From Bacillales bacterium UBA7476 (lineage in GTDB: Bacteria; Bacillota_I; Bacilli_A; RF39; UBA660): a stretch of DNA of 60,295 bases. Shown piece after piece: positions 1,057 to 32,639 of this stretch. The notes under the pieces are model-generated. The model was not told the origin of the DNA and made no database searches. It saw nothing but the letters and a program-made list of their open reading frames with translations. The position numbers and the translations under genes were made by a program. The DNA is taken from assembly GCA_002477275.1 (NCBI GenBank), contig DLOU01000046.1, positions 25,046-85,340 of the forward strand, given 5' to 3'. Each line of letters begins with the position of its first letter. Within the stretch, counting starts at the first letter, position 1.

Positions 1057-2070
1057 CTATCTTTCTAATATCCAATCTTGTAAATATTTAATTTTTGTTC
1101 CACAAAACTTACATTTACCAGTAGTTGCATCAATTGATGCTCCACAGTTTGGACACATAATAATATTCTTTCCTTCTTTTAATTCAAGTTTACCTTCTAT
1201 ATTTTTCTTCATAGTAAATGTATCTTTAATATATTTTGATTTTATTTTACCACTTTCGAAACTAATTATTCTTAACTCTATTTCAGTATCTACATATATA
1301 TTGTCATTTTTTTCATATTTGTTAAACGAATTATAATCAAGAATATCAAAATCAATTACATTTTCTTTTGTAAAATAGTACTTTTTAATTTCATAGTTTA
1401 AATTATTGAAAAATGTTTTTTTGTCTATTTGTGAAGTATCCCAAAATATTTTTTGTTTTTCATTTTCATTATCCTTATATCTTTTAATTGGTCCTAAAAT
1501 GATGTATGCATCAATAGTATAAAATAAATAGTATAAAATTAGTGAAAGAATAGCTCCATAAATAAATACTTTTGAAACATCATATGAATTAAATGTTCTA
1601 GATGTTGTTTTAATAAAAATAAAACTTATTATTAAACTTATTACTATATCTACTACTGCTGTTATTATTCTATAAGTAGTATTTCTTAATACTCTATCAT
1701 AGTGATATTTATTTCCTAATTCTTTATCTGTATAATCAATATTATAATATGTTCCACAATATGGGCATCCATCTAAAAAGTTTTCTATTTTAGCTTTTGC
1801 TCCACAGTTTGGACATATATTTTCTTTTTGTTCTTCTTCTTTTGATATAAAAGTATATTCTATTCTTGTATCAAAATCTTTTTCTTCGTGTTTTAATTGT
1901 CCATTTACATAGTACTTTTTTTCTAATCTTATACCTTTTTTAATATCATCGTTTTTTGAATTATCAGTGTTTCTTTCTAGAACTTCTCTATCAACAATAT
2001 ATTTGGTTTTAATGTTAATTTTATTTGAATCTAGTTTTTTCTTTTGATATTCTTCTGATATTAATGCCAT
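1057..2070 (-). CDS. membrane protein with two zinc ribbons flanking two TM helices; function unknown
   Basis: 337 aa. Zinc ribbons are CPNCGAKAKIENFLDGCPYCG and CPNCGASIDATTGKCKFCG. Hydrophobic segments are ITAVVDIVISLIISFIFI and VFIYGAILSLILYYLFY. Confidence 0.55.
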   Translation of the reverse strand: MALISEEYQKKKLDSNKINIKTKYIVDREVLERNTDNSKNDDIKKGIRLEKKYYVNGQLKHEEKDFDTRIEYTFISKEEEQKENICPNCGAKAKIENFLDGCPYCGTYYNIDYTDKELGNKYHYDRVLRNTTYRIITAVVDIVISLIISFIFIKTTSRTFNSYDVSKVFIYGAILSLILYYLFYTIDAYIILGPIKRYKDNENEKQKIFWDTSQIDKKTFFNNLNYEIKKYYFTKENVIDFDILDYNSFNKYEKNDNIYVDTEIELRIISFESGKIKSKYIKDTFTMKKNIEGKLELKEGKNIIMCPNCGASIDATTGKCKFCGTKIKYLQDWILER

Positions 2071-2081
2071 ACTACCACTTC

Positions 2082-2459
2082 CTATCTATTGTTGTTATTA
2101 TTGTTATTATTATTGTTATTATTATTGTTGTTGGAAGAACCACCTGAGTAACTGCTGTGGCTTCTACTTCCTCCCCCACTATAATGAATCGGTTCAATAT
2201 AGTGAGGATATACTTTTATTGAATCTTTTGTTAATAAAAGTCCATCAATACTAACAGATTTTCTTGTTAAAATGGTATCTTTTAAAATATCTCCATTATA
2301 TAAGGAAACACTAGTTGTTCCACCTTTTACTGTTCCATTATTTTTTACCCATTCATAGATTCTTTCTATTTCTTCTTTTGATAATTCATAGTACTTAGTT
2401 AGTTCTATACATCTTCTTTGTAAAATTAGTTCTTCATATGTTTCAGGTTCTTTATTCAT
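2082..2459 (-). CDS. small protein with a Gly/Ser/His/Tyr-rich tail ending in Asn15-Arg; translationally coupled to the radical SAM gene
   Basis: 125 aa. The tail is YPHYIEPIHYSGGGSRSHSSYSGGSS followed by N15 and R. Its start codon overlaps the radical SAM stop by 8 nt (ATGAATAA). Confidence 0.5.
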   Translation of the reverse strand: MNKEPETYEELILQRRCIELTKYYELSKEEIERIYEWVKNNGTVKGGTTSVSLYNGDILKDTILTRKSVSIDGLLLTKDSIKVYPHYIEPIHYSGGGSRSHSSYSGGSSNNNNNNNNNNNNNNNR

Positions 2460-4203
2460 TTTTTAACTCCTTATCTATATAATAAAATTCAATATTTTGA
2501 AATGGTAAATTAATCGCTTCTATATGATAATATGCATTGTTTTTTTGTTTTGTATAATGATAATCTCTTAATGCTGTTGTTGTGAAAAATAAATTGTTTG
2601 CTTTTTCTTTTGATATAAAATCTTTGTATTCTTTTATTTGATTAGTTATGTCATAGCAATAAAAATCTTTTTTATCTGATTTTGTATTATCTAGTACACC
2701 CTTATAAACTTGATGAGTCATTACATGTCTTTGCTTTGTTCTGTTCTCATCACCATATGTTACTAAATCTCCTGATAAAAGCATTATATATAATGCATTA
2801 TTCTCTGGATAATCACATTCTTCTTCTATTAAATTCTTTTTCATATATAATTTTACTTTTGAATTTGGTGTTATAAATACAAACTCTCTACTGTTTTTTA
2901 ATATTTGTGATTCAAGTTTATATTCTGTATTATCTACTTTTAATATAAATGAATCTTTATCATAGATGTATTTTAATTTAGGATCTTTATCTATTATTTC
3001 TTCAAGCGTCCCATTAATACTATCTTTCTTTTTTGGAACATATTTATCTAAATCTACTGTTCTCATTTTTGATAAATATTCGTATACAAATTCTTCATTG
3101 TATTCATCTTTTTGATAATTTCTATCTTTGTACATTTTTTGTTGAAGTAGACAAGTATAACTTTTATTTGTCTTGTATGTATTTTTTACAAACGGACAAC
3201 CTGTTTTACATAAGTATAAATATCCACATTTTGCACATTCTTCATTAAAACCTTCTTTATTATGATTCATAAATATCTTTTTTTGTGCTGTTTGTAAAAT
3301 CTTATCCACAGAATCTGTGTATATATTTCCATAATAATAGTCCTTTTGTTTCTGACCTCTAACGCAAGAATAAATATCCCCATTTTTTTCTAATAAGAAA
3401 AACTTTTCTCCACAGTTATCACAATTAGGACAATATCCTGGACCAAATTCATCAAACCATGCATTGTTTACTCCATAATCTAGGTCTGTTCCATCAAATT
3501 CTTTATGCATTCTATCATATAGTTCTAATTGTTCTTCTTCAGTAATATGATGAAGAATTCCACATGAATTATAGTCAAAACCTATCATAAAGTTGAAATC
3601 ATTCATATCAAGGCATGTATTTTTATTTAAATACTTTATATCTTCTACTATTTCATCTAATTTATTAAAATGTTCTTTAAATATAGTTGCAGATACTTTC
3701 TTTTTATTTGGTATATTCCTTAATAATTCAATATTTTTTAATATTCTATCAAGTGTTTTCTTATTACCTTTTGTAATCCTGTATTCATCATGAAGTGATA
3801 ATGGCAAATCTAGGCTTCCTGATATAGATACATTAAATTCTTTTATTGTATCTATATGTTTTTCTAAGTCATATAAATTTGTCTTTATGTGAGGATTTCC
3901 TATTTTGAAGCCACCTGATGTGATTATTTCTTTGTTTTTTTCGTAGTAATCACTTATAAATTTAATAATTTCTCTAAAATCATTTTTTGATAACGTTGTT
4001 ACTTCTCCACCATGTAGCGAAATATTAAATGGTATAACATTATTATCTTTTAGTTTATTTACTGCATATTCTAGTGTTTCTAGTGGACTATACTTTGTTT
4101 TTTCATCTTTTGTATTATCCTCTAAATAACAATATTTACAACACATATTACATGCCATTGTAGGTACATATAATAAATGAATATATTTATAATCTGTATT
4201 CAT
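2452..4203 (-). CDS. radical SAM / SPASM-domain enzyme with a ~230-aa C-terminal extension
   Basis: 583 aa. The CX3CX2C motif is at C18/C22/C25 (ACNMCCKYCY), with HGGEVT as the GGE-like motif. The SPASM signature is CGEKFFLLEKNGDIYSC (CX10GX4C) plus CAKCGYLYLCKTGC (CX2CX5CX3C) and a trailing Cys. Confidence 0.85.
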   Translation of the reverse strand: MNTDYKYIHLLYVPTMACNMCCKYCYLEDNTKDEKTKYSPLETLEYAVNKLKDNNVIPFNISLHGGEVTTLSKNDFREIIKFISDYYEKNKEIITSGGFKIGNPHIKTNLYDLEKHIDTIKEFNVSISGSLDLPLSLHDEYRITKGNKKTLDRILKNIELLRNIPNKKKVSATIFKEHFNKLDEIVEDIKYLNKNTCLDMNDFNFMIGFDYNSCGILHHITEEEQLELYDRMHKEFDGTDLDYGVNNAWFDEFGPGYCPNCDNCGEKFFLLEKNGDIYSCVRGQKQKDYYYGNIYTDSVDKILQTAQKKIFMNHNKEGFNEECAKCGYLYLCKTGCPFVKNTYKTNKSYTCLLQQKMYKDRNYQKDEYNEEFVYEYLSKMRTVDLDKYVPKKKDSINGTLEEIIDKDPKLKYIYDKDSFILKVDNTEYKLESQILKNSREFVFITPNSKVKLYMKKNLIEEECDYPENNALYIMLLSGDLVTYGDENRTKQRHVMTHQVYKGVLDNTKSDKKDFYCYDITNQIKEYKDFISKEKANNLFFTTTALRDYHYTKQKNNAYYHIEAINLPFQNIEFYYIDKELKNE

Positions 4204-4222
4204 AATCTCCCCCTAACCTTGT

Positions 4223-4984
4223 TTATGGATATATAATTCCTGCGCTAGTTATATTATTGTAGTTATATTCTCCAAATGTTCCATAATAATTAATATTTGT
4301 TGGGCTTTCCTTAAATGCTCTTTCATTAACTGATACTCCTTGTGGTAAATTAATATTATATAGACTTGTACATTGTCTAAATGCAGATGAACCAATTTCT
4401 TTTAATTTGCTATTTTCTGATATATAAACTGTAGATAGACTTGAATCTCCATAGAATGCATGTCCACCAATTCTTGTTACAGAATCAGGTATATTTATAC
4501 TTCTTAGTGATGTGCAATATTCAAATGTATCTCCCCTTATTTCTGTTAATTTATCTCCCAATTCAACTGTTTCAAGTGATTTTGCATTATAAAATGCTTC
4601 TCCTCCAAGATGAACTAAGTTATTTGGTAGTTTAATTGATTTTAATGATGTTGCATTGTAGAATGCTCCTCCATCTATATAAGTAACTGTTTCTGGAATA
4701 TCTATTTCTTCTAATGATGTACAATTTTTAAATGCACTTCCTCCAAGTGATTGTAATTTTTTTGGTAATTTAACTTTTTTTAGTTTTGTATCATTTTTAA
4801 AAGCTTGTCCTCTTATTTCTGTTATTGAATCAGGCAGCGTAGCTTCTTCTAAATTTTTCATATTTGAAAAAGCATTTCCTCTTAAACTAACTACTTTTTC
4901 TCCTTTATATGTTTCTGGGATTGTTACAGTTTTATTGTTTGTTAAACCATAAGCATAGAATCTTACCCCATAACCGTTTGGCAT
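4223..4984 (-). CDS. leucine-rich-repeat protein (BspA-like LRR)
   Basis: 253 aa with about 8 repeats of the pattern LP..(L/V)..I(G/R)..AF..C.SL..I.IP. There is no signal peptide of its own. The start overlaps the upstream membrane-protein gene by 22 nt. Confidence 0.7.
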   Translation of the reverse strand: MPNGYGVRFYAYGLTNNKTVTIPETYKGEKVVSLRGNAFSNMKNLEEATLPDSITEIRGQAFKNDTKLKKVKLPKKLQSLGGSAFKNCTSLEEIDIPETVTYIDGGAFYNATSLKSIKLPNNLVHLGGEAFYNAKSLETVELGDKLTEIRGDTFEYCTSLRSINIPDSVTRIGGHAFYGDSSLSTVYISENSKLKEIGSSAFRQCTSLYNINLPQGVSVNERAFKESPTNINYYGTFGEYNYNNITSAGIIYP

Positions 4985-5949
4985 TTTTCATAAAGTATTT
5001 TGGGTTCATAGAAAATAATAAGTGGTAAAACAATTGCAATCACCATAGTTAAAATTCCAAGTAATTTACTGTAATCTTTTATTAAATTTTCTTTTGTAGA
5101 CATTACAATATTACTTATTTTTTCGTTAGGCCTTGCTTTTATTTCTTTTGATATTATTGATAGTATATTTACTTTTCTAGATAATATAAAAACAACCATT
5201 AATATTATTATCCCTATTACATATGTAGTTTTTGGAAAATGGAAGAATATTAGTGATATAAATGTAAATATTAATAAACTCATTATTGTATTAATAATAA
5301 TTCTCTTTTTCTGAAGTTCTTTTGTAGTAAAACTTCTAAGTGAAGATAATCCTTCTTTCTTTAACTCTCTATTTACAAATTCTTCTATCATTTTTTCTTC
5401 TGATAAGCTATACATTGAATCATAATCTTTAATTGTTGATGGTAATCTAGATATTAATACTTTGATTTTTTGTGGTTCTACTGGTTTTCCACAAATTGGG
5501 CAAAATTTATCTGTTTCTTTGATTGCTGCTGAACAATTCTGACATTTTAATGCTTTTTCTGCTTCTGTTAGAGGTTTAATAGGAATTACTGATATACTTT
5601 CTCTTTCTTTTTCTCCTGCACCGGTTATTGCTTCTATCATTGAAATTATTGTTGGTACAACAAATATAGATATAAAATCAATAATTACAGCTGTATCTTC
5701 AATGATACTATACAATATCCATAACAAAACAAATTTTCCAATTAATATAAGACAGAATATACCTTTTTGATTTCCTCCATTACTTAAAATTCTTGAAAGT
5801 GGGATTATAACAAAGGGTATTTCTATAATTGTAATAACTATTTCCATGGCTATCATTCCAGAAATATCTGTTTGACCTGGGGCAGATTCTGCAAAAACTG
5901 TTAATGGTATTAATAATAACAAAAATAATAATAAACTTCTTTTTTTCAT
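4963..5949 (-). CDS. polytopic membrane protein with signal peptide and internal zinc ribbon
   Basis: 328 aa. The signal-like N-terminus is [20 protein letters not shown]. There are several hydrophobic helices and a zinc ribbon CQNCSAAIKETDKFCPICG. Confidence 0.5.
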   Translation of the reverse strand: MKKRSLLLFLLLLIPLTVFAESAPGQTDISGMIAMEIVITIIEIPFVIIPLSRILSNGGNQKGIFCLILIGKFVLLWILYSIIEDTAVIIDFISIFVVPTIISMIEAITGAGEKERESISVIPIKPLTEAEKALKCQNCSAAIKETDKFCPICGKPVEPQKIKVLISRLPSTIKDYDSMYSLSEEKMIEEFVNRELKKEGLSSLRSFTTKELQKKRIIINTIMSLLIFTFISLIFFHFPKTTYVIGIIILMVVFILSRKVNILSIISKEIKARPNEKISNIVMSTKENLIKDYSKLLGILTMVIAIVLPLIIFYEPKILYEKCQTVMG

Positions 5950-6031: not shown

Positions 6032-9000
6032 TTAATCATTATATTTATAAAACTTTTTTCTTCTAGTTATTTCTTTGATTATAGATTCTACTTTTCCTGT
6101 TTTGTTAGAACTATCCATTACTTCTTTTAAAAGTTTATCTCCTTGATCATAGTATTCCGATTTATATAAGTATTTACATAGTTTTAATTTTATAATTTGT
6201 TTTTCTGTTTCAGAAATATCTAACTCATCTAATTCATAATCTATATTTTTATTTTGAAGTATTAAACCAAAAAATTTATTATAATCAATTTGAACTTTAT
6301 TTTGCTTTTTTACTTCTATTTCTTCTTGTGGTTTAATTTTTTGAATTTCCTCTTGTATTTCTGTCTCTTTTGTTTCAGTAAAACTATCAAGTTTTTTCTT
6401 AATAAGTGTAATTAGGAAATCTAGTTCTATATTTTTCAAAAAGTCAAGGTCATTATATTTACTTAATTCATTAGAAATACTAATATAATCTTTTGCTTTT
6501 TCTCTTAAATTGTTATTCTCATCCATAAGTGATACATAACATACTCCAATCATGTAATAAACATCAGTATTATTTATGTATTTATCTTCTCTTAATGATA
6601 ATAGTTTTTTTAGTGCTTCACTAAAGTCATGATTATTATAATCTTCTTTTGCTCTTAAGAATAATTCATCTTCATTTTCAGATGGTTTTTCATTAAATTT
6701 TCTTACCACTAACTTCTTATCTTTATCACCAACAAAAATCACCTTAATATTATGATCTTTAACTAATTTTTCTTTTGCTTTTATTAAATTACTATTATTA
6801 TCATCTATAATTATAAGTTCATTATCAGTTAAATCATTATAATTACTGCTTTCAAGATTAACGTTTTCTAGAATGTTTTCAAATTCTAATAACCTGTTAT
6901 TTTTTAATTCATATCTTAATACTTTTTTTCTCTTATATATTTCTTCTATATTACCTTTTAATAAACATTCTTCGTTTAGAGAGTCTATATTTAGAATGAT
7001 ATTTAAACATATTTCACTTAGTTCTATATCGTTATCCATTAATGATTTATAAAATTTTTGAACAATTTCTGCAAGAAGTAAATTTAAATTTGGCTTTTGA
7101 ATGCTTGCTAAAAACATTAGTGGACTAGTATAATTATTGTCTTCTTCTAAAATTGATGTTCTAATCAAATTTAACGCTAAGTCAAAATATTCGTTTTTAT
7201 TATTTTGATTTAAATATCTTTTTATTTCTAATAAACCATTTTCTAGGTCATTATTAGATAGATAAATCGCTATATCTTGAAAGTTCGTATTATCTTTTAC
7301 TTCTTCCTCTTGACTTTTTTCTTTTATTTTTATTTCTCTTAGTAATATTTCTATTATATCCTTTTTGTTTTTTTGTTCTTTTAATGTATTTAAAGCTTCT
7401 AATATATTATTGTCATATATTAATAAACGTATATTATTATCATTATTATCTTCTAAACTTTTTATTTCATTTACATTAAATAATTTTACTTTTTCTTTAT
7501 ACTCTTTAGGGAGTTCATATACTTTTGAAATAAGTAAAAGTATTAAATTATAATAATGTTTTTCATTTTCTTCAGTATTGCCTATTAATAAATCTAAATA
7601 TTTTAGTGTTTGTTCATATTTTTTGTTCTTAATACTATCTTCTAATAAATAATCATTAACTTCTATATTTTTTGGATCTATTTTGTAGCATTTATCTAAT
7701 ATTTTACTTGCAAATACTTTTTGTCCTTCTCTTAGCATTCCATTATATAATTCTAAAAGAAGTTCTACTTTACTACTTGATATTTCGTAAATACCATTAT
7801 TTAGAGTAAGATAATTATTATTTATTAGATAGTCTAATGTTTCTTTTCCTACTTCAGACAAATCTTTTTCTGTTAAATTATCACCCATGCAGAATGCTAA
7901 AAAGATTTTCTTTATGGTTATTCTTTGTTTTATTTCTTCCTCTTTTTCTCTTGCTAAAATTAAATTGTTATTCTCTTCTCTTTGATTTTCTAGTCTTTTT
8001 TTAAGGGTTATTGATAACAGATTTCTAATATATTTTTTTTCATCTATAGATATATCTTTTTTTATAACTGGATTATGTAAGTCTTTTCCATAGTAATCAT
8101 GTAATTTAATAAACTGATTATTGTTAAGCCCTTTTATTACATAGTCAACTTCTTTTTCTGAATATCCATAAGCTTTGAAATAATCATAAATATTGTCTGT
8201 GTTAGAATATTTTTTTACTTTTTTATCTTGTTTTATTCTTTTTAATTTGTTCTTTATAGTTAACGTTACAAGATTTCTAAGTTGTAATTCTTCTTTATTA
8301 CTTTTTTTGATTACTTTAGTACTTTTGTAATCCTCTCCGTAATATGTTTTCAATATTTCTTTTTGGTTTCCTGTCAAACTATTTAGTACTTCTTTTATTT
8401 CATCTTCTGTAAAACCATATGCAAAACAATATTCATATAGGTTTTTTATTGAAATTCTTTGTCTTTCTTTAGCATTATTATGTTCTTTTGTATCAGGCTT
8501 TTTTTCTATATTTCTACTTTTTTCTAGTTTTTTCATTAAATTAACACATAAAAGATTTCTAACACGTATTTTGTCGTTTTTACTTATTTTATCATTTATA
8601 ATAGGATGCTCTAAATCTTTTCCATAGTATAAAATAAGTAATTCTCTTTGATTATCATTTAAATTATCTAATACTTTATTAACTTCTTCTTTTGTATATC
8701 CATGAAACTCAAAATATTCATATATATTATTTATAGATGCTCTCTTTTTAGTGCTTACAGTTTCACTATTTTCTTTTAAATGTTTTATTTTTTGCTTTAA
8801 AGTACCTGTTACTAAATTTTTAATATATTTTTTATCATTTGAATCTATTTGATCATTAATAATGGGATGTTCTAAATCTTTTCCATAATACAAATATAAT
8901 TTTTCTAATTGTTTTTCATTTAGACTATTTAATAAATTATTAATTTCTTCTTTTGTATATCCATAATTCATAAAATACTCATATATGTTATTTATATTAT

Positions 9001-11185
9001 TATAATGTCTCTTTTGTTTTTGCATATTTTTTTCCTTCTTTGATTTTGTTTTGTTTTGATTTTCTCCTATAATACTTATTTCTATTTTATATAATGAATT
9101 TATTATTGTTACATAACTTTGATTGTTTCTTTTAATTTTATCTTCATCACTTTGATTATAATATTTATTTATAATAAATCTAGTTTTATCGCTTAAAGTA
9201 TCTAATAATTTGTCTATTTCTTCTTTTGGATATTCATAACCTTTAAAAAAATCATATACACTTTTATCTAATAATTTAACAAATCTTTCTGTACTATAAT
9301 TTAATAGTATTTCTTTCATTTTTGGAAAGATTTCTTCATATACTCTCTTTTTAATTTTCTCATCACTTAATAATTCATCATTTGGATTATCTAATTCAAT
9401 GCCAAAACATTTATATATAAGTTTTTTTTCTTCTTCACTTAATAGTAAAAATGCATATTTAAATTTGAAATTTGAATATTCTTCTTCAGCAAAATATTCA
9501 TATATATTTTTATTTTGTTTTTCTACTAAATTTGGTATTGTATCTAACAATATCTTTCTAAGCATTTCTTTTTCTTCAGCTGTTATGTTTTTATTTTTTA
9601 TTTTTTGATAATTATCTATATATATTTTATCTAATAACTCTTTTTCTTCTTTTGGTAATAGTTTTAGTGCTCTCTCTATTTTATTTTTCTTATAACCATA
9701 TCTTTGATAAAATCTAAAAATTGAAAGAGGAATGGATGATTGTGGCAGTTTCAATTCTAGAGTAGTATTATTCCGTTTATTTTTATTTTTTAATCTTTCC
9801 TCTATCAATATTGGTTTAATTTTTTCTTCTATTATTTTAACAATCGTATCTCTTGAAATGTTTTTATTAATTATAGTAGGGCTGATTATTTCATTGTTGT
9901 AATAGCTATTTAATAATTCTATATCAGATTCTTCTAATTGTTCTAATACTTTTCTTAATTCTTTCTCATTTATGTGAAAATCTATTAAGTATTCTTTTAT
10001 ACTCTTTCCTTTTTCATTTTCTGATTTCTTTTTATCATTTACTTTACTTATAGATTTTGAATACATTTTTTTTAAGGCTCTCTTTTCAATCTGTCTAATT
10101 CTTTCTCTAGTACAATTAAATATTATTGATATTTTTTCTAATGATTTTTTTTCTTTTCCATTTATTCCAAATCTATACTCAATTACTTCTTTTTCCCTTT
10201 GTGTTAAAGAATCTAATAGGGCTGTAATCATTTTTATTTCATCATCCATAATTGCAGATTCTTCAGGGCTAGGTTTATCGTCACTAATTACATCTTTAAA
10301 TTCTTTATCACTATCAAGTTTCTCACTTGATATCTTTTCGTCTAAACTAATTGTATTTTCGGCATATTGTTTTATTTCCAATACTCTTTTTTCAGGTATA
10401 TTTAATTCTTTACCTATCTCATAATCTGTTGGTTCTCTTCCTAATTTTGATTCAAGTTCACTACTTTTTCTTCTGATATCAGATATTTTTTCTTGAATAT
10501 GAACAGGTATTCTAATATTTCTGCTATTATTTTGAATAGCTCTCATTATATTTTGTCTTATTTCCAAATATGCATAAGTTGTTAAAGAATATGATTTTGC
10601 TGGATCAAACTTATCAATTGCTTCCATTAATCCAATACTTCCTTCTTGAATTAACTCTAAAAATGAAATTCCTCTACCAATATATTTTTTTGCAATATTA
10701 ACTACTAATCTTAAATTATGTTCAGTTAACTTATCTTTTGTTTTTTTATTTCTTGTATTATAGTACTCTACTAACAATTCTCTTTGTTCTTCTTTTGGTA
10801 AGATAGGATATTTTGATATTTCTTGTAAATATATTTTAACAGAATCATATCCATTTTCTTTTATTGAATATGAGTCTTCTATTGATTCAACTGCTTCCAT
10901 TTCAGCTGTTTCTTCATTAAAGATTGAATTATATATATCAATCAATGATATAGCATATTCGCTTAGCCCTATGTTTTCTATATTCATTTTTCTTTCGTTT
11001 ACTTCATTTATAATTTTTTCAAGCAAACTATTTAAATTTTCATTTATCTTAATTAAATTATATATTTGATCAAAATTAAGATCCTTTTTTGATATGAGTG
11101 ATGAAATTTCATTAGCATATCTTACAAGGGTAGGTAATGAATTATCATTTATATCAAGTTGTTCTATTTCAGTTATTTCTTTCAT
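6032..11185 (-). CDS. giant (1717 aa) sigma-70 family protein: SigA-like regions 1.2-4, then eight tandem modules, then a TPR-like helical tail
   Basis: Residues ~115-375 align by eye with SigA. Matching segments are NLRLVVNIAKKYIGRGISFLELIQEGSIGLMEAIDKFD, IRIPVHIQEKI and REKEVIEYRFGINGKEKKSLEKISIIFNCTRERIRQIEKRALKKM. The remaining ~1340 aa have no parallel in ordinary sigma factors. Confidence 0.8.
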   Translation of the reverse strand: MKEITEIEQLDINDNSLPTLVRYANEISSLISKKDLNFDQIYNLIKINENLNSLLEKIINEVNERKMNIENIGLSEYAISLIDIYNSIFNEETAEMEAVESIEDSYSIKENGYDSVKIYLQEISKYPILPKEEQRELLVEYYNTRNKKTKDKLTEHNLRLVVNIAKKYIGRGISFLELIQEGSIGLMEAIDKFDPAKSYSLTTYAYLEIRQNIMRAIQNNSRNIRIPVHIQEKISDIRRKSSELESKLGREPTDYEIGKELNIPEKRVLEIKQYAENTISLDEKISSEKLDSDKEFKDVISDDKPSPEESAIMDDEIKMITALLDSLTQREKEVIEYRFGINGKEKKSLEKISIIFNCTRERIRQIEKRALKKMYSKSISKVNDKKKSENEKGKSIKEYLIDFHINEKELRKVLEQLEESDIELLNSYYNNEIISPTIINKNISRDTIVKIIEEKIKPILIEERLKNKNKRNNTTLELKLPQSSIPLSIFRFYQRYGYKKNKIERALKLLPKEEKELLDKIYIDNYQKIKNKNITAEEKEMLRKILLDTIPNLVEKQNKNIYEYFAEEEYSNFKFKYAFLLLSEEEKKLIYKCFGIELDNPNDELLSDEKIKKRVYEEIFPKMKEILLNYSTERFVKLLDKSVYDFFKGYEYPKEEIDKLLDTLSDKTRFIINKYYNQSDEDKIKRNNQSYVTIINSLYKIEISIIGENQNKTKSKKEKNMQKQKRHYNNINNIYEYFMNYGYTKEEINNLLNSLNEKQLEKLYLYYGKDLEHPIINDQIDSNDKKYIKNLVTGTLKQKIKHLKENSETVSTKKRASINNIYEYFEFHGYTKEEVNKVLDNLNDNQRELLILYYGKDLEHPIINDKISKNDKIRVRNLLCVNLMKKLEKSRNIEKKPDTKEHNNAKERQRISIKNLYEYCFAYGFTEDEIKEVLNSLTGNQKEILKTYYGEDYKSTKVIKKSNKEELQLRNLVTLTIKNKLKRIKQDKKVKKYSNTDNIYDYFKAYGYSEKEVDYVIKGLNNNQFIKLHDYYGKDLHNPVIKKDISIDEKKYIRNLLSITLKKRLENQREENNNLILAREKEEEIKQRITIKKIFLAFCMGDNLTEKDLSEVGKETLDYLINNNYLTLNNGIYEISSSKVELLLELYNGMLREGQKVFASKILDKCYKIDPKNIEVNDYLLEDSIKNKKYEQTLKYLDLLIGNTEENEKHYYNLILLLISKVYELPKEYKEKVKLFNVNEIKSLEDNNDNNIRLLIYDNNILEALNTLKEQKNKKDIIEILLREIKIKEKSQEEEVKDNTNFQDIAIYLSNNDLENGLLEIKRYLNQNNKNEYFDLALNLIRTSILEEDNNYTSPLMFLASIQKPNLNLLLAEIVQKFYKSLMDNDIELSEICLNIILNIDSLNEECLLKGNIEEIYKRKKVLRYELKNNRLLEFENILENVNLESSNYNDLTDNELIIIDDNNSNLIKAKEKLVKDHNIKVIFVGDKDKKLVVRKFNEKPSENEDELFLRAKEDYNNHDFSEALKKLLSLREDKYINNTDVYYMIGVCYVSLMDENNNLREKAKDYISISNELSKYNDLDFLKNIELDFLITLIKKKLDSFTETKETEIQEEIQKIKPQEEIEVKKQNKVQIDYNKFFGLILQNKNIDYELDELDISETEKQIIKLKLCKYLYKSEYYDQGDKLLKEVMDSSNKTGKVESIIKEITRRKKFYKYND
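7916..10000 (-). repeat. eight tandem in-frame coding repeats (~72-95 aa each) inside the giant sigma gene
   Basis: Unit starts lie near 10000, 9726, 9510, 9263, 8989, 8727, 8443 and 8194. The best-conserved units read NIYEYF..YGYTKEE(V/I)N..L..LN..Q.E.L.LYYGKDLEHPIIND.IS..DK..(I/V)RNLL...L.KKL. Confidence 0.75.
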
Positions 11186-11305: not shown

Positions 11306-12748
11306 ATGAGTAAAAAAGAAAAAGTATTTTATATTTCATCATTTTTATTTTATTTATTTATACTTTCTCTTTCTCCAATTTCAGGTGATGATTGGGGAAA
11401 CTACATTGCAGGAAGTAATGGTTTATATCATTGTATAGGTAATGCGGTTGGTATGTATTTTTCGTGGGAAGGAAGGTTTGTAAGTAGAGTACTTATTAAC
11501 ATACTTACTTATCATAAAATACTATGGAATATTGTTAATGCATTTTTAATTGTTTTATTTAATTACTTATGTATTAAAATTATAAAACCAAAAAATAATA
11601 AATTAAGCTATTTGTTTGTTTTTTTGATTATACCATTTATGAATCTGTATACATTCTCTCAAACTATAACATGGGTTGCTGGAAACATTACTTATTTCTT
11701 TGAAATACCACTTATTTTAATATACTATATGATGTTATCAAAGAAAAAATATGATTTTAAATTTAACTTTATTTTTCTATTATTGTTAAGTGCTTCTATA
11801 CCGATGTTTGCTGAACATATGGCTGCAATTCTTGTAATTGGTAACTTAATTATTCTTTTTTATAATTATTATAAAACAAAAAAAATTGATAAGAAAATCA
11901 TAATTTTTACTATAGTTGCAATAGTATTTACTTTACTAATGTATTTATCTCCAGGAACAAAATTAAGATCTGCAAGTGAAAATCTTGACTTTAATAAACT
12001 AAGTATACTTGGAAAAATAATATATAATATTCCAGCCTTTGTTTACTATACTTTTATGGATAATTACTATTTACTTGTGTTATTTATAATTACTAATTTT
12101 GTTATAATTAAAAAGAGATTTAAGAAAAAATGGATAAAAATTTTATTAACTTTATTTTTAACAGTTGTTCCTTTAATAACACTTATTATTTATCCACTTA
12201 GTGTAGTTAAAAATATTAATATTATTAATAATATATGGTTAATTATATATTATATAGTTTTCTTAATAATTTCTTTCTTTTTAAATATCTTTGAAAAAAA
12301 TAAAGAAAGTACGTTTTTATTTATTATTGGTATAATGGCGAATTGTGTTATGCTAATGTCTCCTACCTGGGGATATAGAACAACATTATTTACATATATG
12401 ATGTTGGCTCTTGCTAATATAATTTTAATAACAAAATACTTAAAGAATAACAAGTTTATAGAATATATTTTAAAGTTATTTAGTATTATAATTTGTATTA
12501 TGTTTATTGTTCTTTACATAAATATATTTAGATGTCAAAAAGATTTAGAAAAAGGTATTAAAAAACAGTTAAAAGAAAATAAAGATGTAATAGATGTTGT
12601 GATGTTCCCAAATTATGTTAATTGTAATATTAATCCTGATAATGACTTTCATCTAGTTAAATATAAAGAATACTATAGTATTCCACAAGATAAACAAATT
12701 AATTTTATTGATGGTAAATGGCATTACTTTGTTATTTATAAAAAATAA
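11306..12748 (+). CDS. polytopic membrane protein, GT-C-like / DUF6056-like (putative glycosyl- or lipid-linked sugar transferase)
   Basis: About 480 aa with at least 12 hydrophobic helices and an N-terminal SPISGDDWGNY motif. The ATG at 11306 with RBS AGGTGA is preferred over the track's GTG at 11297. It is divergent from the giant sigma gene. Confidence 0.5.
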   Translation: MSKKEKVFYISSFLFYLFILSLSPISGDDWGNYIAGSNGLYHCIGNAVGMYFSWEGRFVSRVLINILTYHKILWNIVNAFLIVLFNYLCIKIIKPKNNKLSYLFVFLIIPFMNLYTFSQTITWVAGNITYFFEIPLILIYYMMLSKKKYDFKFNFIFLLLLSASIPMFAEHMAAILVIGNLIILFYNYYKTKKIDKKIIIFTIVAIVFTLLMYLSPGTKLRSASENLDFNKLSILGKIIYNIPAFVYYTFMDNYYLLVLFIITNFVIIKKRFKKKWIKILLTLFLTVVPLITLIIYPLSVVKNINIINNIWLIIYYIVFLIISFFLNIFEKNKESTFLFIIGIMANCVMLMSPTWGYRTTLFTYMMLALANIILITKYLKNNKFIEYILKLFSIIICIMFIVLYINIFRCQKDLEKGIKKQLKENKDVIDVVMFPNYVNCNINPDNDFHLVKYKEYYSIPQDKQINFIDGKWHYFVIYKK

Positions 12749-12780
12749 ATAATCCACAATTATTGTGGATTATTTTTTTA
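12748..12780. terminator. bidirectional stem-loop AATAATCCACAAT/ATTGTGGATTATT followed by a T-run
   Basis: A near-perfect 13-nt inverted repeat sits between the convergent genes and overlaps the sirtuin stop codon. Confidence 0.65.
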
Positions 12781-13612
12781 GTTTTTCTATTAAATCTATT
12801 GTTTCATAAATACTATCAGATACAGAAATAGATTTGTTTTTTATTTCTTTTGGTACTTCTGAATATTTATCGTTAAATCTCACTAATTTAAAATTATCAT
12901 GTAAAAATGTTAATTCTTCAAAAGGGAATCTAATTATTCCTGGTGTATTAAATCCTATTCCAAATTCTAATAGCAATACTTTATTATCAATATTTTCTTC
13001 AATAAAATTATAATATTCTTCTTTCATTTTGTGCCAGTTATCATCTTCTACAAATGTATCATCACATCTTAAATTTACAGACATATTTTTTCCACACACA
13101 GGACATTTTGGTACTAATTCTGTCGGAATTTTCAAATTATCATCTATATTATTTAACATCTCATATACTTGTTCTTCATTATCGTATAGCTTGTTATGAC
13201 ATGGCTTACAGCATTGTAATTTAGAATAACTTCCTTGCACTTCAAATACCTTAGATTTATCAAAACCATTATTAATAAACTGACCATCAGTATTAGTTGT
13301 TATTACAAAATATGTTTTATCTTTTACTAGCTCAAATAACTTCTTATATAATTCGGTATGTTTTCTTTCATAATACGAAAAGAATATATGTTTTGCCCAA
13401 TATGCCCATTTTTCTTCTTCTGTTTTAAATGGATAAAACGATGAAGTATATAAATCAGTTATTTTATATTTATTAATAAAATCTTTAAAATCATTTTCAA
13501 ATTTTTCTCCACTATAATGAATACCGGCTGCATCTGATAGTCCTGCTCCTGCACCAATTATTATTACATCTGATTCATCTAACCATTCTTTAATTTTTAC
13601 TATATCTGTCAT
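12770..13612 (-). CDS. Sir2-family protein, macrodomain-linked (class M-like) sirtuin
   Basis: 280 aa. Motifs are IIGAGAGLS (GAGxS), TTNTDGQ (TQNxD-like) and two CxxC pairs (CKPC, CPVC). VQGS has Gln where canonical sirtuins have the catalytic His-Gly. The start lies 9 nt after the macro gene stop (TAAGGAGAAAATATG). Confidence 0.8.
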   Translation of the reverse strand: MTDIVKIKEWLDESDVIIIGAGAGLSDAAGIHYSGEKFENDFKDFINKYKITDLYTSSFYPFKTEEEKWAYWAKHIFFSYYERKHTELYKKLFELVKDKTYFVITTNTDGQFINNGFDKSKVFEVQGSYSKLQCCKPCHNKLYDNEEQVYEMLNNIDDNLKIPTELVPKCPVCGKNMSVNLRCDDTFVEDDNWHKMKEEYYNFIEENIDNKVLLLEFGIGFNTPGIIRFPFEELTFLHDNFKLVRFNDKYSEVPKEIKNKSISVSDSIYETIDLIEKLKK

Positions 13613-13621
13613 ATTTTCTCC

Positions 13622-15133
13622 TTAATTAATACTATTTTTATATAGCAAGTAATCTTCATCTTTAAAAACATTAAATATAATATGATTAAATGAATTATTA
13701 TTATCATTTAAATATTTGGTTACAGTATCTATTGCAATTTTGCATGCTTCTTCTTTTGGAAATCCATATAAACCTGTTGAAATGCATGGAAAAGCTATTG
13801 TTTTTATACCATTTTCTTGTGATAGCTTTAAGGCATTATAATAACATTTTTTCAAATCCTCTACATCTTGTTCTTTTAATCTGCCTCTTACAGCGGGACC
13901 TACTGTTTGTATAACATATTTACTTGGTAAGTTATAACCTTTAGTTAATATTACCTCTCCATTAGATAAAGTTTTTCCCTTCATTATTTCATTACATTCT
14001 TCCCTTAACTGTATACCAGCAAATGAATGAATTGCATTGTCTATACAATTATGACCTGGTACAAAGCATCCTAATAAATATTCATTGCAGGCATTTACTA
14101 TAGCGTCACATTTTAACGTTGTTATATCACCTTTCCAAACGGAAAGTATTCCTTTATCATAACTAATATCTTCTTCATCTATTATACCTTTATTCTCTAT
14201 TTCTTCTTGTAAATATTTATCCTGTTTTTTTAGATATTCACTACTAATTTTCTTTGGCTTTCTAATATTTCTTAAACCTCTATATAATGCTTTTTTATCT
14301 TCTAAATTATTTGGTATTTTTATCTTTGATAACGCTTTATCTTCGTCAATTAATTCTTGAATTAAATAATCGAGTTCTTTTATCTTTTTCTCTTCATTAT
14401 ACTTTTTTAGATAATCAAAACCTATTACAATTTTTTCATTTATTGGAGTTTCTTCACTATAAACATCTCTTAACTTATCAATAACTAGTTCTTCTCCATC
14501 ATACATTTTATAAAAACTATTATAGCCCTTTTCTTCAAAATCAAACAGCTTATTAAATGGTTTATTATTTAGTATTGGATCTGTTACTATTTCACTATAT
14601 TCCCACTCAATATATGGGGAATCATAATATCTTCTAGGAGTTTTTGGAAATAACTTTTTCCATTTTTCAAACCACAAGAAATGAAGTGTTTCATGAGCGC
14701 ATGTTTCAATTACTTTCCAGTCCTCTATTCCAGTTCCTACTGAAAAACTAAATTCATCTAGATATCTTGGAAATACTGGTATTAGTCCTACTTTTGCTTC
14801 TATTTCTTTTTTAGGCCATTCTATTTCTAAATAATCTGATAGCATCTCAAAATAGCTATCATTATATTCAATCCATAATTTATTATATCTTTCAGTTTCC
14901 TCTTGAAGCCTATTTGTGTATTTTTCATAATCTTTTTTTACTATGTCTTCTATTATTATGTACACTTCTTCTTTTGATAATTTTTCATCCAAATCTGCTA
15001 ATTCAGGGAAATATGATACTGTGTAATTATGAACGCTTAATAAACCATTATTCTCATAATATGCCCATTTAATTGTATCTATATTTTCTTCAAGACTCAT
15101 TTTTTTAAATAATAATTTTGGTACTTTTTTCAT
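13622..15133 (-). CDS. two-domain protein: N-terminal HExxH domain (~250 aa) fused to a protein-ADP-ribose hydrolase-type macrodomain
   Basis: 503 aa. The C-terminal half has LYRGLRNIRKP...SEYL, VWKGDITTLKCDAIVNACN, GHNCIDNAIH, VIQTVGP and IAFPCISTGLYGFP, typical of sirtuin-linked macrodomains. The N-terminal half has CAHETLHFLW (HExxH) at 14681-14695. Confidence 0.85.
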   Translation of the reverse strand: MKKVPKLLFKKMSLEENIDTIKWAYYENNGLLSVHNYTVSYFPELADLDEKLSKEEVYIIIEDIVKKDYEKYTNRLQEETERYNKLWIEYNDSYFEMLSDYLEIEWPKKEIEAKVGLIPVFPRYLDEFSFSVGTGIEDWKVIETCAHETLHFLWFEKWKKLFPKTPRRYYDSPYIEWEYSEIVTDPILNNKPFNKLFDFEEKGYNSFYKMYDGEELVIDKLRDVYSEETPINEKIVIGFDYLKKYNEEKKIKELDYLIQELIDEDKALSKIKIPNNLEDKKALYRGLRNIRKPKKISSEYLKKQDKYLQEEIENKGIIDEEDISYDKGILSVWKGDITTLKCDAIVNACNEYLLGCFVPGHNCIDNAIHSFAGIQLREECNEIMKGKTLSNGEVILTKGYNLPSKYVIQTVGPAVRGRLKEQDVEDLKKCYYNALKLSQENGIKTIAFPCISTGLYGFPKEEACKIAIDTVTKYLNDNNNSFNHIIFNVFKDEDYLLYKNSIN

Positions 15134-15149
15134 AAATACACCTCAATTT

Positions 15150-15158
15150 ATTATAACA
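15150..15158 (-). promoter_or_regulatory. extended -10 element TGTTATAAT upstream of the macro-sirtuin pair
   Basis: The minus strand reads TGTTATAAT about 17 nt upstream of RBS GAGGTG and the ATG at 15133. Confidence 0.4.
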
Positions 15159-15941: not shown

Positions 15942-16143
15942 ATTAATCATCCTTTCATTTTTTATTGTGTGATTGTAAATAAAAAGAACCTCCTTTCATG
16001 AATATACAACAAAAAACAATCACAAATTAATGTGTATATTTTTTGCCATTCATGAGGAGATTCTTAAGACTCTTCATTATTCCTTTAAACTTGCGTTTAT
16101 CTGGTAGTAAAACGCGAATGACTAATTGATTTACTACGGAATG
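15942..16143 (-). promoter_or_regulatory. ~190-nt structured 5' leader of the methyltransferase gene (class not recognised)
   Basis: The leader contains hairpin GCGTTT(11 nt)AAACGC. It also contains a 9-bp stem TGTGATTGT/ACAATCACA enclosing a GAAAGGAGG sequence, and CTCCTCATGAAT complementary to ATTCATGAAAGGAG. Confidence 0.3.
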
Positions 16144-16172
16144 AGTATAACATAATACTTTTAATTTGTCAA
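16144..16172 (-). promoter_or_regulatory. sigma-A promoter TTGACA, 17 nt, TATACT
   Basis: On the minus strand the -35 lies at 16167-16172 and the -10 at 16144-16149, just downstream of the stop of the 131-aa ORF. Confidence 0.55.
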
Positions 16173-20254: not shown

Positions 20255-20884
20255 TTATCCTAATCTCATTTTTGGTTTTGTATCAACTTTAAAAAAAGGG
20301 ATTTCTTGATTATTCAAAAATACATTTATATTTGTAATCTTATACCAGCCATTATTTTCATCATAAAAAACAAAACTTATCTCATCAGTTTCATGAACAT
20401 TTTCAGGCCCTACTGTTAATAAGCCACCAAAAAAATATTTCTTTTCGCCATTTTCAGGTTGAAAATCTCGTTGAAGTGTTTGTATTGTTCTTAAATCTTG
20501 ATTTGAAAAAAATCTACAAGTTCCACCAATATATGGATGAGTATGAATATGTGCAATACAATTATATTTATTATCCTCAATTTTACTCATTAATTCTTTA
20601 TGCATCAAAAGTTCATTACCATTTTTATCAATATTTACTTCAAATTCTCTAAAACTTGGTTCGTAATCATCATATTTGCTAGGCATATCAAAATATATTA
20701 CATTTGGTTTTATTTCTTTACCATATAAAAATGTTCCATATTCTAATTCTTTAGTACCACTAAATGCACATAAATTAATATCTGCTGAAAGTCTTCTATA
20801 ACATTCTTCAGAGAGTATTATTCTACTATTAGGTAATTCATTAAATTCAAAATGATTGGTAGCTCCTGCTAAGACATTTGCCAT
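20255..20884 (-). CDS. JAB/MPN (JAMM-like) metalloprotease-domain protein, orphan
   Basis: 209 aa. It has ELEYGTFLYG (E..G.L.G) and AHIHTHPYIGGTCRFFSNQD, which is HxH...SxxD with a 10-residue spacer instead of the usual 7. Confidence 0.55.
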   Translation of the reverse strand: MANVLAGATNHFEFNELPNSRIILSEECYRRLSADINLCAFSGTKELEYGTFLYGKEIKPNVIYFDMPSKYDDYEPSFREFEVNIDKNGNELLMHKELMSKIEDNKYNCIAHIHTHPYIGGTCRFFSNQDLRTIQTLQRDFQPENGEKKYFFGGLLTVGPENVHETDEISFVFYDENNGWYKITNINVFLNNQEIPFFKVDTKPKMRLG

Positions 20885-21043: not shown

Positions 21044-21702
21044 TTAGGAAATTACTTTCCCATCTAAATTACATATATAACAGTTTGGCAATAGTTTTTT
21101 TATTTCATTTAATATTTCTTTATTATTTTCATAGTCTCTACCAACTAATATACCTTCTATAAAATTTGCAGTAATTCCAAACAAAATAGCGCTTTCTCTA
21201 TCAGTAAAGAAATCATCTTTTTCTTTTCTCTCAGTTATAAATCTATCATAATAATTTTCATTAACAAATTCTTTAACATCTTTATCATTAATAATTAAAG
21301 GATTTAGTATATCACCTTTTAAAAGAGCTTTTGTATACTTATTTGTTCCATTAAAAATAATTCCAATTTGAACTTGATTTTGAACTAAACTAGGCATAAA
21401 TCTTGCTTCTTTTGTCTGTTCCATATTCCAACACTACTAGGATACTTTGATAATCTTCCATCTATAAACCAACTGGATATCAAACCATCTTTTAATATTT
21501 CCTTTAAACCTTCAATATTTTTATAAATTCCATGTAATAAAGTTCCTTTATCTAGCTTTACTTCATCACCAATCTTATATTTATTATTTATAACTTGATA
21601 TTCTTTTGCAAAGTAATATCTATCTATTTGTTCTAACATTATCTTTTTAGAACAATCACTTAATTTATCATTAATTTTTTTTACATAATCGGATTTGTTC
21701 AT
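21044..21702 (-). pseudogene. two ORFs overlapping by 40 nt (105 aa + 126 aa): either a frameshifted single gene or a coupled pair; function unknown
   Basis: ORF 21385..21702 runs into ORF 21044..21424 in another frame. The second ATG has only a weak RBS. Confidence 0.35.
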
Positions 21703-22116: not shown

Positions 22117-23306
22117 TTAAATTTTATTATTCTTTAACTTCCATCGTCTTATTATTAAAGCACTTATACCAAGTATTATAGGAAAACCTATTCCTGAAAG
22201 TATTCCAATTTGTAAATTGTTCCCATTCATCTGAGATACACTTCCTACTATTACAGGGCCGACTGATCCACCTAAATCGCCAGCTAAAGCTAAAAATGCA
22301 AACATTATTGTTCCTCCTTTTGGAAGAATAGATGAAGAAATACTAATAGAACCAGGCCACATAATTCCAACAGAAAAGCCACATAACATACAGCCTATTA
22401 AACCTAAAATTGGAATATTAGTTATTCCTGCTAAAAGATAGCAACAAAAACACACAAATCCAGAAAATACCATAAATACAGTCAAGTCAATTTTGTTGGC
22501 AAATTTCACATATAAAACTCTGCTAAGACCCATAAAAAATGCAAATCCACAAGGTCCTGCTAAATCTCCTATAGTTTTTGAAATATTAAGAGCTGATTCT
22601 GCAAAAGCAGAAGACCATTGTGCAATTACAGCCTCAGATGATCCTGCACAAACCATTAAAATAATTAACATCCAAAAAATATTCGTCTTAAAAAGTTCTT
22701 TGATTGTCATGCCTTTTCCATCTTCTACAATAGGTTCAATAGGACAGGTTGCAAAATTATATATATTATATAACGGAATTAATGCCCATATACAAGACAA
22801 AATACGCCAATGTTCTAGCCCAAATGTTGTAAAGAATAATGTTGAAATTAATATAACTCCCACAGCTCCCCAACAATAAAACGAGTGTATAAACTCATCA
22901 TTCCCTCTTTATTTTCAAAAGGACAAGATTCAACAATTGGACTGCATAGAACTTCAATAAGTCCACTTCCAACAGCATAAACTATTGTACAAATAATAAT
23001 TCCAATAAATGGATATGGCAAAATATTAGGCAAAAATGCAAGGCCTATAAGTCCAATAGCAGAGGTTATCTCAGATAATATAATGCTTATTCTATACCCT
23101 ATTTTATCTACAAATTTTGTACAAGCAAAATCTATTAATATTTGTGTAACATAAAAACAAGTTGGTATAAGTGCAAGCTCACCAAATGATATATTATATG
23201 TTTTATAAAATGTGATAAATAATAGAGGTGCAAAATTTGCCGAAATCGCTTGTGTAATAAATCCTAAATAACATGCTAATAATGTTTTTTTATATTTATT
23301 TTTCAT
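22117..23306 (-). pseudogene. MFS-type transporter disrupted by a 1-nt frameshift near 22893-22900
   Basis: ORF 22848..23306 ends ...KEGMMSLYTRFIVGELWELY-stop. A different frame reads EFIHSFYCWGAVGVILISTLFF and continues seamlessly into ORF 22117..22863, which the track starts at a GTG. Confidence 0.7.
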
Positions 23307-32438: not shown

Positions 32439-32491
32439 GCTTTAATATTCGAAAGAATATTTTAGTAATAAAGAATAAAGGAGGTATTTTA

Positions 32492-32611: not shown

Positions 32612-32617
32612 TAAAAA

Positions 32618-32639
32618 AGAAGTCATTTGGCTTCTTTTT
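32618..32639. terminator. stem-loop AGAAGTC/GGCTTCT followed by a T-run, between convergent agrD and the kinase gene
   Basis: It lies immediately after the agrD stop and overlaps the kinase stop codon. Confidence 0.55.

Follow-up and report, generated by a model that had tools for sequence, protein, structure and literature searches.

What does a paired sirtuin and macrodomain act on when the carrier protein modified by their best-studied counterparts is not encoded beside them? This question is raised by a locus in Bacillales bacterium UBA7476, on a 60,295-nt stretch of contig DLOU01000046.1 that was analysed as a whole (hereafter the window). On its minus strand, a Sir2 gene (12770-13612, 280 amino acids [aa]) lies 9 nt downstream of a gene for a 503-aa protein (13622-15133) that ends in a macrodomain. 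An initial annotation had described the two as a class-M-like sirtuin (SirTM) and its partner hydrolase, and had drawn attention to the missing GcvH-L and LplA2 genes. Our analyses indicate that the pair is very probably a stand-alone ('minimal operon') SirTM/Zn-Macro module that would carry out reversible mono-ADP-ribosylation of a substrate other than GcvH-L. The absence of GcvH-L and LplA2 has been published for such pairs and is universal among the relatives examined. The novel element is instead the fusion of the Zn-Macro to a putatively zincin-like domain, an architectural variant of a known system.

We reasoned that a class-M sirtuin should be recognizable from its catalytic residues and its closest structural relatives. 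The motifs listed in the initial annotation were all located in the Sir2 protein: GAGAGLS (residues 20-26), TTNTD (residues 105-109), the zinc-ribbon cysteines (C134/C135, C138, C170 and C173), and a VQGS sequence in which Gln126 (codon 13235-13237) does replace the catalytic His. A phmmer search of all PDB chains returned SpySirTM (5a3a) as the best match (E 7.3e-54; 268 aligned residues, 32.8% identical) and Foc1Mfs1 (8rsn; E 3.2e-29), a macro-SirTM fusion of fungal origin, as the second significant match. No other sirtuin structure was significant in that search, the next best being SIRT6 at E 0.23. In the HMMER alignment to 5a3a, N107, Q126 and R182 fall on the columns of SpySirTM Asn118, Gln137 and Arg192; N107 within TTN and R182 within VNLR occupy the catalytic Asn and Arg columns, and the QG motif FEVQ126GSY stands opposite FHIQ137GEY. 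Mutation of any of these three SpySirTM residues abolishes ADP-ribosylation, and class M is defined by QG in place of HG (PMC4518038). The Pfam SIR2 model matched narrowly above its threshold (28.8 vs 24 bits), and the NCBIfam CobB/deacylase equivalogs scored 20-37 bits against cut-offs of 221-395. Because the PDB matches are confined to SpySirTM and Mfs1, the catalytic columns are conserved and the CobB models stay below cut-off, the 280-aa protein is a SirTM, a class-M sirtuin by all sequence criteria at hand. The placement among sirtuin classes that had been proposed as a check therefore fell in class M and not in a deacylase class, as judged by the PDB phmmer search and the NCBIfam CobB models rather than by a tree. 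The gene is also linked to a Zn-type macrodomain gene on the same strand, which ends 9 nt upstream; the reported gap was borne out, the minus strand reading TAA-GGAGAAAAT-ATG before the Sir2 start.

The partner was identified with equal consistency by family models and structures. Residues 249-502 of the 503-aa protein pass the NCBIfam model NF003163 (protein-ADP-ribose hydrolase; 304.9 bits vs a cut-off of 272), and Pfam Macro spans residues 346-467 (E 1.9e-37). Its closest solved relative is MorMacro (8rsi), which comes from a lone pair (E 2.8e-76, 260.6 bits, 51% identity); the extended-operon proteins SauMacro (5kiv/8rsl) and SpyMacro (8rsm) follow at 217 bits (44% identity) and 159 bits, respectively. 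The Zn-Macro family motifs Cx4HxC and Dx3H (PMC11490716) are present as the Zn-loop C356-x4-H361-x-C363 (14045-14068) and as D365-x3-H369, and the segment C356-FVPG-H361-N-C363-I-D365-NAI-H369 lines up with its counterparts in MorMacro and SauMacro. Residues 252-330 align at the sequence level, without large gaps, to MorMacro 7-80 and SauMacro 16-95, the region of the three-helix bundle. This region holds the LYRGLxNxR...EYL helical lead-in noticed earlier, which was found as ALYRGLRNIRKPKKISSEYL opposite a 20-residue segment of SauMacro. That the upstream gene ends in a SirTM-linked partner macrodomain was thus upheld by the NF003163, Pfam and PDB matches, which specify a Zn-Macro hydrolase. 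The C-terminal half of the 503-aa protein is, on these matches, a Zn-Macro and a predicted protein-ADP-ribose hydrolase.

The remaining half of this protein had been overlooked. Residues 1-250 are a separate conserved domain, not a lead-in to the macrodomain, and constitute a full copy of an uncharacterised family of ~254 aa (hereafter the N-domain). Of its homologues (n = 417), almost every one is a protein of 242-265 aa that stands alone and contains no Pfam domain. The N-domain had no sequence match in Pfam, NCBIfam or the PDB, and profile searches likewise gave no PDB match and no Pfam match that recurred. Across members at 38-70% identity, H147, E148 and H151 (HETLH, 14681-14695) and the S180-E181 pair are invariant, and the copy in the fusion keeps every family-invariant residue. 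An AlphaFold2 (AF2) model built from 44 sequences (mean predicted local distance difference test score [pLDDT] 92.1, predicted template-modelling score [pTM] 0.87) has a three-stranded sheet, then a long helix that carries HExxH (138-161), then a helix that carries E181 (175-188). Foldseek comparisons of the model were weak (best E 0.16, template-modelling [TM] score at most 0.31), and nearly all matches were zincin metallopeptidases, including M1 aminopeptidase catalytic domains, selecase, lugdulysin and SprT-like proteins. On account of the invariant HExxH...E, the AF2 fold and these weak zincin-type matches, the N-domain is probably zincin/gluzincin-like; a peptidase activity would be entirely hypothetical. 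It would resemble the zincins and gluzincins (M1 catalytic domain, selecase-type minigluzincins, SprT-like, M78) in that the AF2 model puts HExxH on a long helix after a small beta-sheet, and an invariant Glu ~30 residues after HExxH on the next long helix. It differs from the zincin families in lacking a significant sequence or profile match, with Foldseek E values of at least 0.16.

The N-domain family combines with a variety of other domains. Fusions were found to NUDIX (P0402), DUF3781 (P0186), CAP (P0449) and an N-terminal GNAT domain (P0283), and to an unknown 140-aa domain (the P0246 group; a cluster of 230 members). Stand-alone N-domain loci had no consistent neighbour; a GNAT gene lay upstream in two of the first three, and a NUDIX gene lay two genes upstream of one stand-alone copy.

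The two halves of the 503-aa protein are joined end to start: the N-domain falls short only of its last few residues, and the Zn-Macro begins at its usual first residue. Ile251 (ATA, 14381-14383) occupies the position of the initiator Met of stand-alone Zn-Macros. A codon listing of the 503-aa open reading frame (ORF) contained no in-frame ATG, GTG or TTG between Met209 and Met385, so separate synthesis of the eraser by canonical initiation is excluded. The +1 frame at the junction ends in a TAA that overlaps the ATA codon, an arrangement that resembles an ATGA start/stop overlap. A frameshift origin at a nearby A6 run was considered and is not claimed, as the in-frame sequence KKYNEEKK fits the C-termini of the family (e.g., KNYEQHRK) at least equally well.

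We then asked whether the fusion is real and how widely it occurs. Independent assembly of run SRR5325268 yielded an identical 503-aa protein; its contig matches the window at 100% identity over 6.8 kb. A second 503-aa protein in the same 90% cluster, with five substitutions (~99% identical), came from a different project (ERR1278105/ERZ842401); its contig has 99.64% DNA identity to the window over 13.5 kb, with 46 differing positions and identical junction DNA. Both strains share the gene order ABC, orf131, methyltransferase, fusion, SirTM, DUF6056 and giant sigma factor. Its presence in two strains from separate datasets shows the fusion to be genuine and proper to a single species-level lineage. 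Codon differences between the strains within the fusion gene amount to 3 synonymous and 5 non-synonymous, numbers at which dN/dS has no statistical power. In the second strain (L098 7522-8403), a mutation has removed the stop codon of SirTM, and the ORF runs 13 codons further into the terminator hairpin and encodes 293 aa as compared with 280.

Outside this lineage the fusion was not found. Among 5.8e9 protein clusters, this cluster alone covered both halves, and the fusion was absent among the matches listed from 185,579 GTDB species representatives. A two-domain match was likewise absent from a library of 50%-cluster representatives, in which fusions inside single-domain clusters could be hidden. 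No macro or Sir2 gene lay within 8 kb of ~20 stand-alone N-domain loci, and the N-domain was absent at ~70 pair loci. The window flanks had no shared synteny with either type of parent locus, Zn-Macro pair or stand-alone N-domain. Some Zn-Macros elsewhere are fused to SirTM, ASCH, PNPOx-like and HAD domains; the single-chain PNPOx-Zn-Macro fusions are P0251 and P0479.

The missing partners were searched for over the whole window. Pfam scans of essentially all window ORFs of at least 90 aa gave no match to GCV_H or BPL_LplA_LipB, nor to the old yellow enzyme (OYE) or luciferase-like (LLM) oxidoreductase families. Escherichia coli GcvH and LplA queries gave no phmmer match at E <=10 among stop-to-stop ORFs of at least 50 aa. 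The observation that neither GcvH-L nor LplA2 lies near the pair was thereby extended from several kb to the full 60 kb, and the substrate of the pair is not a GcvH-L carrier encoded in cis. The novelty implied by this absence was overstated, because lone pairs with unknown targets have already been described and every related locus checked was also without the partners. SirTM/Zn-Macro pairs occur alone, in extended operons or fused (Ariza et al. 2024, PMC11490716), and lone pairs had been described earlier as well (Rack 2015, PMC4518038). GcvH-L is the only known target, those of other SirTM systems being unknown; Zn-Macros from lone pairs (MorMacro) and from fusions were unable to demodify SpyGcvH-L, and the Macro:GcvH-L interaction is specific to extended-operon proteins (PMC11490716). 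In the literature consulted from 2023 onwards we found no new SirTM target beyond GcvH-L.

Related loci were compared to learn what usually accompanies such pairs. In eight loci of close relatives (Sir2 proteins 66-80% identical), precomputed Pfam annotation contained a Macro protein (252-258 aa) and SIR2 only, with unrelated flanks. Across a wider set of 72 Zn-Macro loci, mostly from GTDB species representatives, SirTM adjoins the Zn-Macro at most of them, and E. coli queries, run without a positive control, detected neither GcvH nor LplA homologues within ~8 kb. No third gene conserved beside the pair in close relatives was common to the window. A DUF1848 gene follows SirTM in two of six close relatives and is absent from the window; in L001 (10837-11721) and L003 (10836-11726) it overlaps or abuts the SirTM 3' end on the same strand, and it may belong to the operon as a third gene in some of the lone-pair clade. 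Clostridial lone pairs have recurrent neighbours, namely Rrf2 and HxlR regulators, PNPOx-like/4Fe-4S and SnoaL-like proteins, flavodoxins and aldo-keto reductases. In Lachnospiraceae and Ruminococcus (L038-L093; e.g., L073 7174-7887), an Rrf2 regulator lies upstream in 26 loci, PNPOx-like/4Fe-4S genes occur in 16, SnoaL-like genes in 13 and HxlR genes in 12. These Rrf2, PNPOx-like/4Fe-4S, SnoaL-like and HxlR genes are candidate pathway partners of lone pairs, and the redox- and stress-type character of the neighbours fits the association with oxidative and electrophile stress that other authors have proposed.

How, then, does the locus compare with systems already described? The lone pairs of Methanobrevibacter oralis (MorMacro, 8RSI-8RSK), Enterococcus faecalis and Treponema pedis (PMC11490716) have the same order, Zn-Macro then SirTM on one strand, and as here lack GcvH-L, LplA, OYE and LLM, have unknown targets and sit in variable flanks. 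The eraser half shares with MorMacro, besides the sequence identity given above, the same Cx4HxC/Dx3H active site and the 3-alpha-bundle. Described lone-pair erasers and those of every relative examined are stand-alone proteins of ~250-290 aa, whereas here the eraser is preceded at its N-terminus by an additional HExxH domain of 250 aa and lacks a separate start codon. The locus is thus a variant and not a plain member of the lone pairs, because its eraser is the C-terminal half of a 503-aa fusion. The extended operon of Staphylococcus aureus and Streptococcus pyogenes (GcvH-L, Zn-Macro, SirTM, LplA2 and OYE/LLM; Rack et al. 2015, PMC4518038) has a homologous writer and eraser: SpySirTM is 33% and SauMacro 44% identical to the window proteins, with QG, Asn, Arg and the Zn-loop in common. 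In contrast to that operon, there is no lipoyl carrier, ligase or oxidoreductase in 60 kb, and the eraser is nearer to the lone-pair type. Fungal Mfs1 (8RSN) and bacterial single-chain SirTM-Zn-Macro proteins (P0258, P0413 and P0503) combine the same two catalytic domains, and domain fusion recurs in this system. In those proteins writer and eraser form one chain; here they are two proteins, and the eraser is joined instead to a third domain unrelated to either. The bacterial single chains (539-585 aa) have the sirtuin N-terminal, the opposite domain order to that of fungal Mfs1.

The signals that could govern expression of the pair were examined in their local context, a region of 25% GC. An extended -10-like sequence had been proposed as the pair's own promoter. 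The TGTTATAAT sequence is present as described (15158-15150); its role as a promoter is doubtful. Promoter-like matches occur in the region at chance level (67 found vs 66.7 expected from shuffles), and the spacing is awkward: the -10 box ends 16 nt before the fusion ATG, and a transcription start ~7 nt downstream would land inside the Shine-Dalgarno sequence GAGGTG at -11 to -6. A near-consensus site, TTGACA-17-TGTTATACT (16172-16144; 11/12 match + TG), lies upstream of a methyltransferase gene, and the 190-nt leader contains a long hairpin and a U-run (minimum free energy -44.5 kcal/mol, z = -4.68; 0/200 shuffles fold equally well). An Rfam search with this structured leader was negative; the element may act as an attenuator or may terminate the ABC/orf131 unit that lies upstream.

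The methyltransferase gene is 46 nt upstream of the fusion gene on the same strand, with no terminator between them, and the same arrangement holds in the second strain; it is absent from the pair loci of relatives. A strong bidirectional hairpin (12747-12775) follows SirTM. Because the methyltransferase and fusion genes are not separated by a terminator and the hairpin lies after SirTM, the transcription unit probably comprises the fusion gene and SirTM and ends at this hairpin, and the methyltransferase is possibly co-transcribed with them. A GGAG in the spacer suggests that SirTM is translationally coupled to the fusion gene. The coordinates of these features are collected in the table.

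Table. Features of the fusion/SirTM locus, in window coordinates.
Feature	Position	Strand	Basis or remark
Bidirectional terminator-like hairpin, 13 bp stem	12747..12775		Terminator scan; overlaps SirTM stop codon
SirTM (class-M sirtuin, 280 aa)	12770..13612	-	Putative writer; phmmer vs PDB, Pfam, NCBIfam
9-nt intergenic spacer with GGAG Shine-Dalgarno for SirTM	13613..13621	-	Sequence reading
Zn-Macro half, residues 251-503 (3-alpha-bundle + MacroD-type macrodomain)	13625..14383	-	Putative eraser; NCBIfam, Pfam, PDB
Fusion junction ...GFDYLKKYNEEKK/IKELDYLIQ... (slash marks the joint)	14375..14395	-	Alignment with stand-alone N-domain and Zn-Macro proteins
N-terminal domain, residues 1-250, HExxH family, putatively zincin/gluzincin-like	14384..15133	-	Homologues, AF2, Foldseek
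TGTTATAAT extended -10-like box, doubtful function	15150..15158	-	Sequence reading; in 46-nt methyltransferase/fusion gap
Class-I S-adenosylmethionine (SAM) methyltransferase, 256 aa	15180..15950	-	Pfam Methyltransf_31/25/11
Promoter-like site TTGACA-17-TGTTATACT and 190-nt structured leader	15951..16172	-	Site at 16172-16144; folding vs shuffles

Taken as a minimal SirTM/Zn-Macro module, the locus would work as follows. SirTM would use NAD+ to ADP-ribosylate a protein side chain by a class-M mechanism through Gln126, Asn107 and Arg182, and the Zn-Macro would remove the ADP-ribose using a Zn2+ held by Cys356, His361 and Cys363, both steps being predicted from homology. The eraser would be made as a 503-aa two-domain protein with no start codon of its own. 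Its minus-strand unit, possibly including the SAM methyltransferase, would end at 12747-12775, with SirTM translationally coupled. Several points weigh against this account. For SirTM, demonstrated activity is confined to lipoylated GcvH-L of Staphylococcus and Streptococcus. The part of the genome in view is 60 kb, so that a GcvH-like carrier could be encoded elsewhere, and the survey of related loci for GcvH and LplA used E. coli queries without a positive control. The zincin assignment rests on the invariant motif and on Foldseek E values of 0.16 or worse, and the limits of the operon were drawn from sequence patterns without statistical enrichment in this AT-rich DNA.

One alternative gives the fusion itself a function, with the N-domain as target or effector (a metallohydrolase switched by ADP-ribosylation and reset by the tethered eraser) or as a means of recruiting the eraser to its substrate. 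Rosetta-stone logic speaks for it: a complete conserved, enzyme-like domain is joined to a complete eraser that is not translatable on its own in the fusion, and the arrangement is kept in two strains. In addition, the family is fused to NUDIX (P0402), another ADP-ribose/nucleotide-handling fold, and NUDIX occurs near one stand-alone copy. The distribution argues otherwise, as among the 5.8e9 clusters and the GTDB matches listed (185,579 representatives searched) the fusion occurs in one species-level lineage only; the ~20 stand-alone N-domain loci are without macro or Sir2 genes, the ~70 pair loci are without the N-domain, and no metagenome-assembled genome appears in both the N-domain and the closely related Zn-Macro sets among the GTDB matches listed. 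The promiscuous fusions of the N-domain (DUF3781, CAP, GNAT, the 140-aa domain) likewise argue against a specific tie to ADP-ribosylation. We consider a functional fusion unlikely, and it is distinctly unlikely that lone SirTM/Zn-Macro signalling has as a target or effector the HExxH...E family at large, perhaps together with its relatives fused to NUDIX, GNAT and DUF3781. Because the association is unique to one lineage and the N-domain joins many unrelated partners, an incidental, lineage-specific fusion tethering two independent enzymes is somewhat more likely than a dedicated target or effector role. A different kind of explanation treats the 503-aa ORF as a pseudogene in decay or as an error of sequencing or assembly. 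It would fit a fusion known from a singleton lineage, the A6 homopolymer 8 codons before the junction, and the frameshift that divides a major facilitator superfamily (MFS) gene at another place in the window. Against such an origin, which we judge very improbable, two assemblers and two independent projects agree on the junction in strains with 46 differences over 13.5 kb, every invariant and catalytic residue is kept in both halves, and the initiator Met of the macro half has become Ile with no alternative start, as expected of an established fusion.

Other alternatives leave the fusion aside and concern what the pair does. It might still modify a lipoylated GcvH-type carrier that is encoded, with its ligase, elsewhere in the genome; GcvH-L is the only known SirTM substrate (PMC4518038; PMC11490716), and our inspection was limited to 60 kb of genome. 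MorMacro and fusion Zn-Macros fail on SpyGcvH-L (PMC11490716), the eraser here is closest to MorMacro (260.6 bits, compared with 217 for SauMacro and 159 for SpyMacro), and no GcvH or LplA was found at any of ~70 related loci, all of which makes such a carrier in trans improbable. The Sir2 protein could also be a conventional NAD+-dependent deacylase (CobB-like, class III or U) whose O-acetyl-ADP-ribose by-product is cleared by the macrodomain. It does match Pfam SIR2, narrowly, and public annotation of its relatives reads 'NAD-dependent deacetylase'; this identity is nevertheless extremely improbable, given the replacement of the catalytic His by Gln (QG), where in SpySirTM even Q137H abolishes activity (PMC4518038), the CobB equivalog scores far below cut-off, and E values of at least 0.23 for sirtuin structures outside class M. 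The last reading considered makes Sir2 an anti-phage NADase effector (Thoeris, DSR or SIR2-HerA-like) in a defence island. Sir2 domains are common as defence effectors, and a 209-aa ORF with a weak BilC-like match lies nearby. Neither gene of the pair matches PADLOC models at E <=0.01, the Sir2 protein is homologous to SirTM specifically and over its full length and is paired with a Zn-Macro, and the recurrent neighbours of related pairs are redox- or stress-type and not defence genes; a defence role is scarcely credible. The minimal SirTM/Zn-Macro module acting on a substrate other than GcvH-L remains the reading we favour.

Several other features of the window were recorded. The giant sigma-factor gene downstream of the pair (6032-11185, minus strand) encodes 1717 aa, of which residues 114-374 are a complete sigma-70 (regions 1.2, 2, 3 and 4); the ~1,300 further residues hold many diverged copies of a ~65-aa module (NIYEYF..YGY[TS]KEE[IV]…L…Q…L..YYGKDL..P) and a tetratricopeptide repeat (TPR)-like tail. 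This sigma-factor fusion is unusually large, its length is kept at 1717 aa in the second strain (L098), and its gene has no tandem repeats at the DNA level. The MFS transporter (22117-23306, minus strand) is in two overlapping ORFs that match Pfam MFS_1 positions 4-126 and 195-347, and is either a frameshifted pseudogene or a local sequence error. The 209-aa protein (20255-20884, with 21044-21702; both minus strand) carries the JAMM-like motif HIHTHP…S..D, matches BilC of PADLOC weakly (E 1.2e-4), and adjoins two small ORFs without a Pfam match; it may be what is left of a defence system of the Bil type (ubiquitin-like conjugation). At 1057-5949 (minus strand), a 583-aa radical SAM/SPASM enzyme has as neighbours a 125-aa ORF, two zinc-ribbon proteins and a leucine-rich repeat (LRR) protein of the BspA type, a group that may be a peptide-modification cluster. 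An agr-like quorum-sensing set spans 31842-34663, with AgrB on the plus strand and a SpoOB-type sensor kinase and LytTR response regulator on the minus strand. A single Rfam family exceeded its threshold in the window, an L31-Firmicutes ribosomal-protein leader (RF03156, 37.7 bits) at 40662-40693 (minus strand).

The substrate of SirTM/Zn-Macro pairs without GcvH-L is an acknowledged open question (Ariza et al. 2024), and this locus does not answer it. It adds a documented lone pair from uncultured, very AT-rich Bacilli of gut and bioreactor origin. The HExxH...E family, which numbers over 400 members, is missing from Pfam and has an AF2 model of high confidence, merits a family definition of its own, and the fusion provides a testable lead that ties the eraser to this conserved, unannotated family. 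If SirTM does not modify the N-domain, the locus is one more member of a known system. If it does, the fusion would point to a new target class and would give the first experimental handle on the substrates of lone pairs.

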